This document shows positions 2,370-2,882 of a stretch of DNA of 32,000 bases, piece by piece. Within the stretch, counting starts at the first letter, position 1. Each line of letters opens with the position of its first letter. Source of the DNA: Xylella taiwanensis (GTDB taxonomy: Bacteria; Pseudomonadota; Gammaproteobacteria; Xanthomonadales; Xanthomonadaceae); assembly GCF_013177435.1 (NCBI RefSeq), contig NZ_CP053627.1:2070001-2102000 (forward strand). Direction: 5' to 3'. The position numbers and the translations under genes were made by a program. The notes beneath the pieces were generated by a model, which worked only from the letters and a program-made list of their open reading frames with translations, did no database searches and had not been told where the DNA came from.

Positions 2370-2882
2370 ATGCGCATTACTTTGACGATCGCCCTCAGCG
2401 GCCTGCTGGCCATGCCCGCCTATGCGACCACACTCAACATCACCGTCGAGATACCCACACTCAACGTCGCCGAATACCACCGCCCCTATATCGCCATCTG
2501 GATCGAAGATGCCGATCAAAAAGTCGCACGCAACTTGGCACTCTGGTACCAACAACGTGGTGGCGCTGAAGCACACGGCACCAAGTGGTTACCGGAACTA
2601 CGCCAGTGGTGGCGCAAAAGTGGCCGTACGGTACAGCTACCTGTAGACGGTGTCACCGGGCCAACTCGCCCAGCTGGGCGACACACGCTTTCCTTGGATG
2701 AGCAACAACAACTCAAACATCTGCCGCCAGGCCAGTACACCCTGGTTGTCGAAGCCACACGTGAAGTCGGCGGGCGCGAACTACTGAAGATCCCATTTAC
2801 CTGGCCGGCAACAACCGCGGAGACAGGTCAAGCCCTGGGTAAGACTGAACTAGGCAACGTCACCCTGGCTGCCCACCCCTAA
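2370..2882 (+). CDS. Secreted DUF2271-family protein (candidate flavinylated periplasmic protein)
   Basis: Sec signal peptide MRITLTIALSGLLAMPAYA. The family-typical block is YHRPYIAIWIEDADQKVARNLALWYQ...KWLPELRQWW. AGGGA lies about 10 nt upstream of the ATG. Confidence 0.8.
   Translation: MRITLTIALSGLLAMPAYATTLNITVEIPTLNVAEYHRPYIAIWIEDADQKVARNLALWYQQRGGAEAHGTKWLPELRQWWRKSGRTVQLPVDGVTGPTRPAGRHTLSLDEQQQLKHLPPGQYTLVVEATREVGGRELLKIPFTWPATTAETGQALGKTELGNVTLAAHP
2646..2666 (+). other. Candidate ApbE flavinylation site (D-G-V-T-G-P-T) inside the DUF2271 protein
   Basis: Codons gac ggt gtc acc ggg cca act give DGVTGPT at residues 93-99. This fits the Dxx(S/T)G(A)(S/T) pattern in which the last Thr/Ser carries FMN in NqrC/RnfG-type ApbE substrates. 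Pro replaces the usual Ala. Confidence 0.45.

Follow-up and report, generated by a model that had tools for sequence, protein, structure and literature searches.

A proline-variant flavinylation motif in a DUF2271 protein of Xylella taiwanensis encoded beside an ApbE without export signal

A 32,000-nucleotide stretch of DNA from Xylella taiwanensis (NZ_CP053627.1, positions 2,070,001 to 2,102,000 of the forward strand; hereafter the window) encodes an exported DUF2271 protein, followed in the same orientation by a DUF4198 protein and, as the second gene downstream, the flavin transferase ApbE. Residues 93-99 of the DUF2271 protein read D-G-V-T-G-P-T, a variant of the canonical ApbE target motif, D-x-x-[S/T]-G-A-[S/T], with Pro98 in place of the usual Ala. 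Judging from sequence comparisons, we consider it likely that Thr99 is the site at which the adjacent ApbE installs flavin mononucleotide (FMN) in phosphoester linkage, the Pro form of the motif included. The motif, its gene and the genes around it are the following:

2646..2666, + strand: ApbE-type flavinylation motif, residues 93-99 of the DUF2271 protein, called from translation, family alignment and conservation
2370..2882, + strand: DUF2271 protein of 170 amino acids (PF10029, 167.2 bits against a gathering cut-off of 27.3)
2..955, + strand: 3' part of the gene for a Fiu-like TonB-dependent siderophore receptor, the start of which lies before the window (PF00593)
999..1691, + strand: PKHD-type Fe(II)/2-oxoglutarate dioxygenase, PiuC/YbiX-like (PF13640, PF18331)
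1676..2350, + strand: PepSY_TM_like_2 membrane protein, VciB-like (PF16357, 276 bits)
2917..3720, + strand: exported DUF4198 protein with a hydrophobic leader (PF10670, 193 bits)
3786..4757, + strand: ApbE flavin transferase (PF02424, 262 bits)
4754..6334, + strand: CysJ-like flavodoxin and NAD(P)-binding reductase with N-terminal hydrophobic segments (PF00258, PF00175)

The match of the DUF2271 open reading frame (ORF) to PF10029 spans positions 2-135 of the 136 in the profile. As an initial annotation of this DNA had read it, D-G-V-T-G-P-T is the translation of window positions 2646-2666 (+), where the codon of Thr99, the predicted FMN acceptor, occupies 2664-2666; Asp93 (position -6), Thr96 (-3), Gly97 (-2) and the acceptor Thr of the canonical motif are all present. 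The N-terminus, called by eye and hydropathy, is a Sec-type leader (approximately residues 1-19, with an A-Y-A site, a hydropathy of 2.14 and no twin arginine), and the protein is predicted to be a periplasmic FMN electron carrier. Its AlphaFold model is a beta-sandwich in which the motif (residues 73-79 in mature numbering) sits in a loop, with a mean predicted local distance difference test score (pLDDT) of 92, between helix H58-65 and strand E83-89; fold searches with this model returned generic beta-sandwich matches only, with Z below 7. The pattern D-x-x-[ST]-G-[AP]-[ST] arises in 0.085% of shuffles of the DUF2271 protein and is not enriched genome-wide (7 matches in 2,703 ORFs, where about 4 would be expected for the Ala form and as many for the Pro form), so that the pattern alone proves little and its value rests on conservation. 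Among the motif-bearing ORFs of the genome, DUF2271 alone has a classical hydrophobic leader. Four ORFs of 456-476 amino acids in G000:C1 (near 2589497, 2360203, 1635607 and 1613925, minus strand) have similar N-termini resembling a hemagglutinin-type extended leader, and each carries D-L-P-T-G-P-S near its C-terminus, probably as a chance match.

The alignment of homologues suggested by the initial annotation as a check on the motif and its Thr was run and came out in their favour. Asp93, Gly97, Pro98 and Thr99 are present in 120 of the 120 closest homologues, and D-x-x-[ST]-G-A-T occupies the same alignment columns across most of the DUF2271 family. Among 135 family representatives (50% identity) covering the site, 124 have Thr at position 99, and position 98 is occupied by Ala in 107 and by Pro in 24 (~18%). 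The Pro, described in that annotation as standing where Ala is usual, is the rule in the closest homologues and far from rare in the family. It was found in 12 of 30 loci of an even sample across the phylum, while a comparison of 122 diverse loci put the conservation of Thr99 at 99%. Every one of 165 distinct Pro contexts encodes Thr99 by ACN, with all four third bases in use, and 164 of them keep Asp93. A Brevundimonas-like set with 78-96% identity to the query combines 82 Ala and 37 Pro sequences with the Thr unchanged, and the Ala/Pro state switches at least 10 times on an operon tree built from PepSY, DUF2271 (with the Ala/Pro column masked) and DUF4198. Pro is the state of those Xylella and Stenotrophomonas copies that were examined; in other Pro lineages positions 97-98 drift, with Ser, Gln, Met or Ala at position 97. 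We infer that Pro98 is a variant that is common in nature and tolerated, and that a cognate ApbE with an altered active-site loop recognises it.

Other arrangements of DUF2271 genes were also encountered. A second operon type (L151-L154, L256-L264, L319-L324, L342-L344), which gave no match to the PepSY or DUF4198 proteins of the window, encodes a DUF2271 protein whose acceptor is Ser (G-A-S), together with a reductase and an ApbE that lacks a signal. One alphaproteobacterial genome has four tandem DUF2271 genes (L263, G608:C1:2487517-2489479), another genome has two nearby copies (L326, G1500:C4), and in L092/L097 and L093/L096 (G011, G009) a long low-complexity insertion separates the two halves of the DUF2271 domain.

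The genome, which is 100% complete, has a single apbE, located downstream of DUF2271 in the same orientation as the initial annotation had stated. No gene for FMN_bind (PF04205) or NqrB/RnfD (PF03116) was found in it, which extends to the whole genome that annotation's observation that no classical FMN-binding-domain protein is encoded nearby; a flavodoxin domain does follow ApbE, and flavodoxin domains of characterised members bind FMN non-covalently. Nor was a flavinylation motif found when another covalent site was sought in the flavodoxin/FNR protein, PepSY, DUF4198 and ApbE, and a search for DUF3570 was uninformative, since its controls gave no match. With this apbE the only one in the genome and the search for other clients finding none, FMN on Thr99 is likely. 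The start of the reductase gene overlaps the apbE stop, and its product, CysJ-like yet below the NCBIfam cut-off, is the probable cytoplasmic electron donor. In the PepSY protein, His38 and His163 (100% in 122 loci), His224 (97%), His61 (94%) and His197 (92%) fit heme ligation, and the protein is probably a heme-bearing transmembrane electron conduit.

The DUF2271 client carries a signal; the window ApbE has no signal peptide, no hydrophobic leader and no lipobox, and thus lacks the N-terminal lipoprotein or Sec signal of extracytosolic (lipoprotein) ApbEs. Its NCBIfam match starts at profile position 34. A frameshifted or missed leader was rejected, given an in-frame stop 17 codons upstream of the start and no leader in any frame. 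A hydrophobic leader is likewise absent in 236 of 255 loci with a stand-alone ApbE, comprising 170 Pro loci and 66 Ala loci without signal, 19 Ala loci with a signal and no Pro locus with one; the calls in this set, which is rich in close kin, were made by a hydropathy cut-off checked by eye, not by SignalP. Signal-less enzymes account for 96 of the 114 PepSY-operon ApbEs (84%) of a less redundant set. DUF2271 leaders are of the Sec type, and they are less hydrophobic beside signal-less ApbEs (median 2.14 versus 2.46; raw medians over a set that includes close kin). A twin-arginine pattern was present in only one of 87 DUF2271 leaders, and export of the folded flavoprotein by twin-arginine translocation (Tat) was rejected on this ground, although TatC is present.

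That Pro never accompanies an exported ApbE holds for stand-alone enzymes only (0 of 19), as leader-bearing ApbE-DUF2271 fusions show Ala-Arg-Pro-Thr. These fusions (L165, L166, L301, L302, L257, L077, L078), several of which have divergent ApbE catalytic regions and a degenerate segment that ends in Ala-Arg-Pro-Thr and lacks the Asp, may form a separate self-modifying or inactive class. Many signal-less alpha- and betaproteobacterial ApbEs (L130, L131, L142, L144, L253, L325-L341) carry a short additional segment at the N-terminus (Arg-Val-Leu-x-Pro and then prolines) that is absent in Xylella.

The fold, Ser-His-Asp triad and metal ligands of ApbE are all found in the window enzyme (model pLDDT 94), which keeps W53, D153, K159, S229, H245, D273 and T277; of these, S229, H245, D273, T277 and K159 align with solved ApbEs, and the aromatic residue at position 53, equivalent to E. 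coli Tyr60, marks the class that binds flavin adenine dinucleotide (FAD). After the catalytic Ser, the active-site loop reads Arg232-Trp233 where solved ApbEs have Tyr-Arg (Tyr239-Arg240 in E. coli), and the Tyr-Arg loop of extracytosolic ApbEs is accordingly missing. In E. coli ApbE, R240 binds the beta-phosphate and is part of a flexible loop (237-253) proposed to open so as to admit the target Thr (PMC4767422). Tyr-Arg is absent in 52 of 54 Pro loci versus 9 of 59 Ala loci of a non-redundant set, and of all columns of the enzyme, position 232 tracks the state of the motif best, outside Lysobacteraceae too; this association suggests enzyme-substrate co-adaptation, although it falls short of significance when kinship is taken into account. 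In Lysobacteraceae Pro loci, Trp233 is invariant and the catalytic Ser, His and Asp are kept (35 of 35 for both), and ApbE diverges no faster than in Ala relatives (ratio 1.57 versus 1.44). Together with the retained metal residues, this gives the altered loop the appearance of a new fixed state rather than of decay. Trp-type ApbEs occur with Ala motifs too, and are thus permissive rather than Pro-specific. There was no demonstrating that the Trp loop arose convergently, since the Trp-type enzymes all lie together to one side of a branch with weak support (66). A complex prediction of ApbE, FAD and Mg with DUF2271 scored 0.02 and was used neither for nor against the proposed pairing.

A PepSY-DUF2271-DUF4198-reductase operon with an Ala motif and without apbE is present in a planctomycete genome bin (L063 6001-9232, L201 488-4337). 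This copy, probably acquired by horizontal transfer, nests inside the Pro clade and within Lysobacteraceae, and the planctomycete genome encodes its own signal-bearing ApbE; the contrast, which is a single event, suggests the same direction as the association between Pro and the loop. The L063 reductase is split into two frames.

Upstream of PepSY, the receptor fragment has Fiu as its best NCBIfam match (E 3.6e-154), and the PKHD dioxygenase matches NF003975 at 335 bits, above cut-off. The best candidate Fur box, a 13/19 match upstream of the receptor, is not evidence, as about 250 sites on one genome strand reach that level. The nearest other cluster is that of X. fastidiosa, at 87% identity. 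Between the reductase gene and a ComEA-like helix-hairpin-helix gene lie about 850 AT-richer bases (6335-7189) without an ORF of 90 amino acids, and further into the window are a ferrochelatase gene (28111-29115, - strand) and the TatC matches (~30904-31536, in the frame of ORF 30862-31602; region 30636-31602, + strand), the latter ORF being overlapped by one of 269 amino acids without Pfam match.

DUF2271 is known as a substrate of ApbE in which an [S/T]GA[S/T] motif is conserved (Meheust et al. 2021, PMC8238504), and the DUF2271 protein of A. ursilacus (Amantichitinum ursilacus, WP_053936890.1) was flavinylated by its cognate ApbE in a reaction that a Thr-to-Ala substitution abolished (PMC8238504). 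The window protein shares with it the Pfam domain, the family motif position, a cognate apbE in the cluster and the terminal Thr; compared from the published description, it has G-P-T against the consensus [S/T]GA[S/T], and whereas that work used a signal-peptide-truncated ApbE, the window ApbE has no signal to remove. The proposal of the initial annotation that DUF2271 is the ApbE client is therefore right in kind, having been demonstrated on an Ala-type homologue, but it is essentially published and not new (PMC8238504); what had been missed is the absence of an export signal on the adjacent ApbE and the loop that varies with the motif. The same study defined 3,220 PepSY-like clusters (PF03929/PF16357, DUF2271, DUF4198 and ApbE), for which iron reduction was proposed (PMC8238504). 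Under their definition, apbE or DUF2271 must have a PF03929 or PF16357 gene no more than five genes away; here PF16357 lies directly upstream of DUF2271, with DUF4198 and apbE downstream, and the signal peptide further required on ApbE, an FMN-binding protein, DUF2271 or DUF3570 is provided by the DUF2271 leader. In common with these systems the window has the full gene set, an NAD-binding reductase, a TonB receptor and a predicted role in iron reduction; it differs in that the NAD-binding domain resides on a separate flavodoxin-bearing protein rather than being fused to PepSY, and in that VIT1 is absent from the operon, FeoB being encoded elsewhere in the genome. As it falls within the definition but lacks two canonical features, Ala at -1 and an exported ApbE, the cluster is filed as a variant.

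The orthologous CCNA_03155-03159 operon of Caulobacter crescentus, which is Fur-repressed and needed under ethylenediaminetetraacetic acid (EDTA) (PMC3751524, PMC11870441), shares its five genes and their order with the operon of the window, although the receptor/dioxygenase pair that lies directly upstream in the window forms a separate locus in Caulobacter. The systems of NqrC, RnfG, NosR and PceC, which have a lipoprotein ApbE, share with the window Asp at -6, Ser/Thr at -3, Gly at -2, an acceptor Thr and the ApbE Ser-His-Asp triad, and differ from it in the client fold, the residue at -1 (Pro in the window) and the ApbE loop (Arg-Trp for Tyr-Arg). The cytoplasmic Klebsiella ApbE acting with fumarate reductase shows that signal-less ApbEs can be active (PMC12052999); its client is cytoplasmic, unlike that of the window enzyme. 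The flavinylation motif is also tolerant, an Ala-to-Val change leaving ~50% flavinylation and seven residues being enough as a tag (PMC12052999).

A number of points weigh against flavinylation of Thr99 by the adjacent ApbE. Pro98 takes the place of Ala at -1 and breaks the strict [S/T]GA[S/T] consensus, and in the literature searched we found no paper showing flavinylation with Pro at this position. A signal-less ApbE is paired here with an exported client, for which the literature searched gave no description, and a cytosolic Salmonella ApbE failed to complement a knockout. Trp at the equivalent of E. coli R240, with an Arg one residue earlier, could lower activity. Neither the signal state of ApbE nor its loop state was significantly associated with Pro in independent-pair tests, which had too few supported pairs, and the Trp-type ApbEs may share one origin. 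Pro lineages might instead have lost covalent flavinylation, with Thr99 kept for structure or a phosphate contact, DUF2271 binding a flavin or partner non-covalently and the cytoplasmic ApbE serving the translationally coupled flavodoxin/FNR protein in FMN supply or assembly. Such a loss would account for an ApbE that lacks a signal peptide and overlaps the reductase start, and for the replacement of the beta-phosphate Arg by Trp, the drift at positions 97-98 in other Pro lineages and the long branches of some alphaproteobacterial Pro-locus ApbEs. We nevertheless regard it as unlikely. Thr99 is invariant; 66 of 85 Ala loci also have a signal-less ApbE and, as such enzymes are the majority beside canonical Ala motifs, a missing signal is no mark of loss. 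Moreover, the fixed Trp233 and unaccelerated divergence in Lysobacteraceae, the aromatic at position 53, which speaks against an FAD-hydrolysing class, and the lack of a flavinylation motif in the reductase all run counter to it. Far less probable still is a chance resemblance of the heptapeptide with no link to ApbE: the bare pattern is indeed about as frequent in the proteome as in shuffles, but the column-for-column alignment with the D-x-x-[ST]-G-A-T of the family, a site class proven experimentally, has already refuted this idea, and apbE adjoins in nearly all complete loci.

Where Thr99 would be modified is a further matter. Flavinylation may take place in the periplasm, ApbE arriving by a route that uses no classical signal (brought by a partner or translated from an unseen start) and the Pro and the loop being immaterial; this is a variant of flavinylation at Thr99, its share lying within the confidence given to that conclusion, and we hold it to be possible but doubtful. 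The characterised exported ApbE clients are all modified outside the cytoplasm, 19 related loci have a signal-bearing ApbE, and our signal calls were made by hydropathy and eye. Such a route has to contend with the stop upstream of the window ApbE and the want of a leader in any frame, with the leaderless state of most stand-alone ApbEs (236 of 255) and with the near absence of twin-arginine patterns from DUF2271 leaders (1 of 87). As signal-less ApbEs are active on cytoplasmic clients and a tag of seven residues is enough, it is chemically plausible that the precursor is modified ahead of its export. This is the simplest reading, although its chances are about evenly balanced with those of an unrecognised export route for ApbE. 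The signal-less ApbE would then modify the DUF2271 precursor in the cytoplasm, with Sec export afterwards. A further possibility, which we rate below even odds, is that a widespread ApbE subfamily devoid of signal, in which the Tyr-Arg of the loop has become x-Trp, acts in the cytoplasm on DUF2271 precursors and attaches the flavin at an extended, Pro-accepting motif before Sec exports them, which would yield a covalent flavoprotein in the periplasm with no need of FAD there.

Under the published hypothesis of an iron-reduction system, NAD(P)H would reduce the CysJ-like flavoprotein, electrons would cross the membrane via the PepSY heme(s) to FMN on the periplasmic DUF2271 protein, and FMN-DUF2271 would in turn reduce Fe(III) brought in by the Fiu-like receptor, allowing Fe(II) uptake (FeoB). 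The core claim adds nothing new to this picture, as ApbE is already proven to act on DUF2271 and operons of this type have been catalogued. If Pro sites are modified, however, the motif by which genomes are mined and flavin tags designed is drawn too tightly and overlooks about a fifth of the family. ApbE acting before export would, if true, explain for these bacteria a periplasmic flavoprotein without FAD export, an open point in the ApbE literature, and a Trp-loop ApbE with its Pro tag could be a naturally orthogonal labelling pair.
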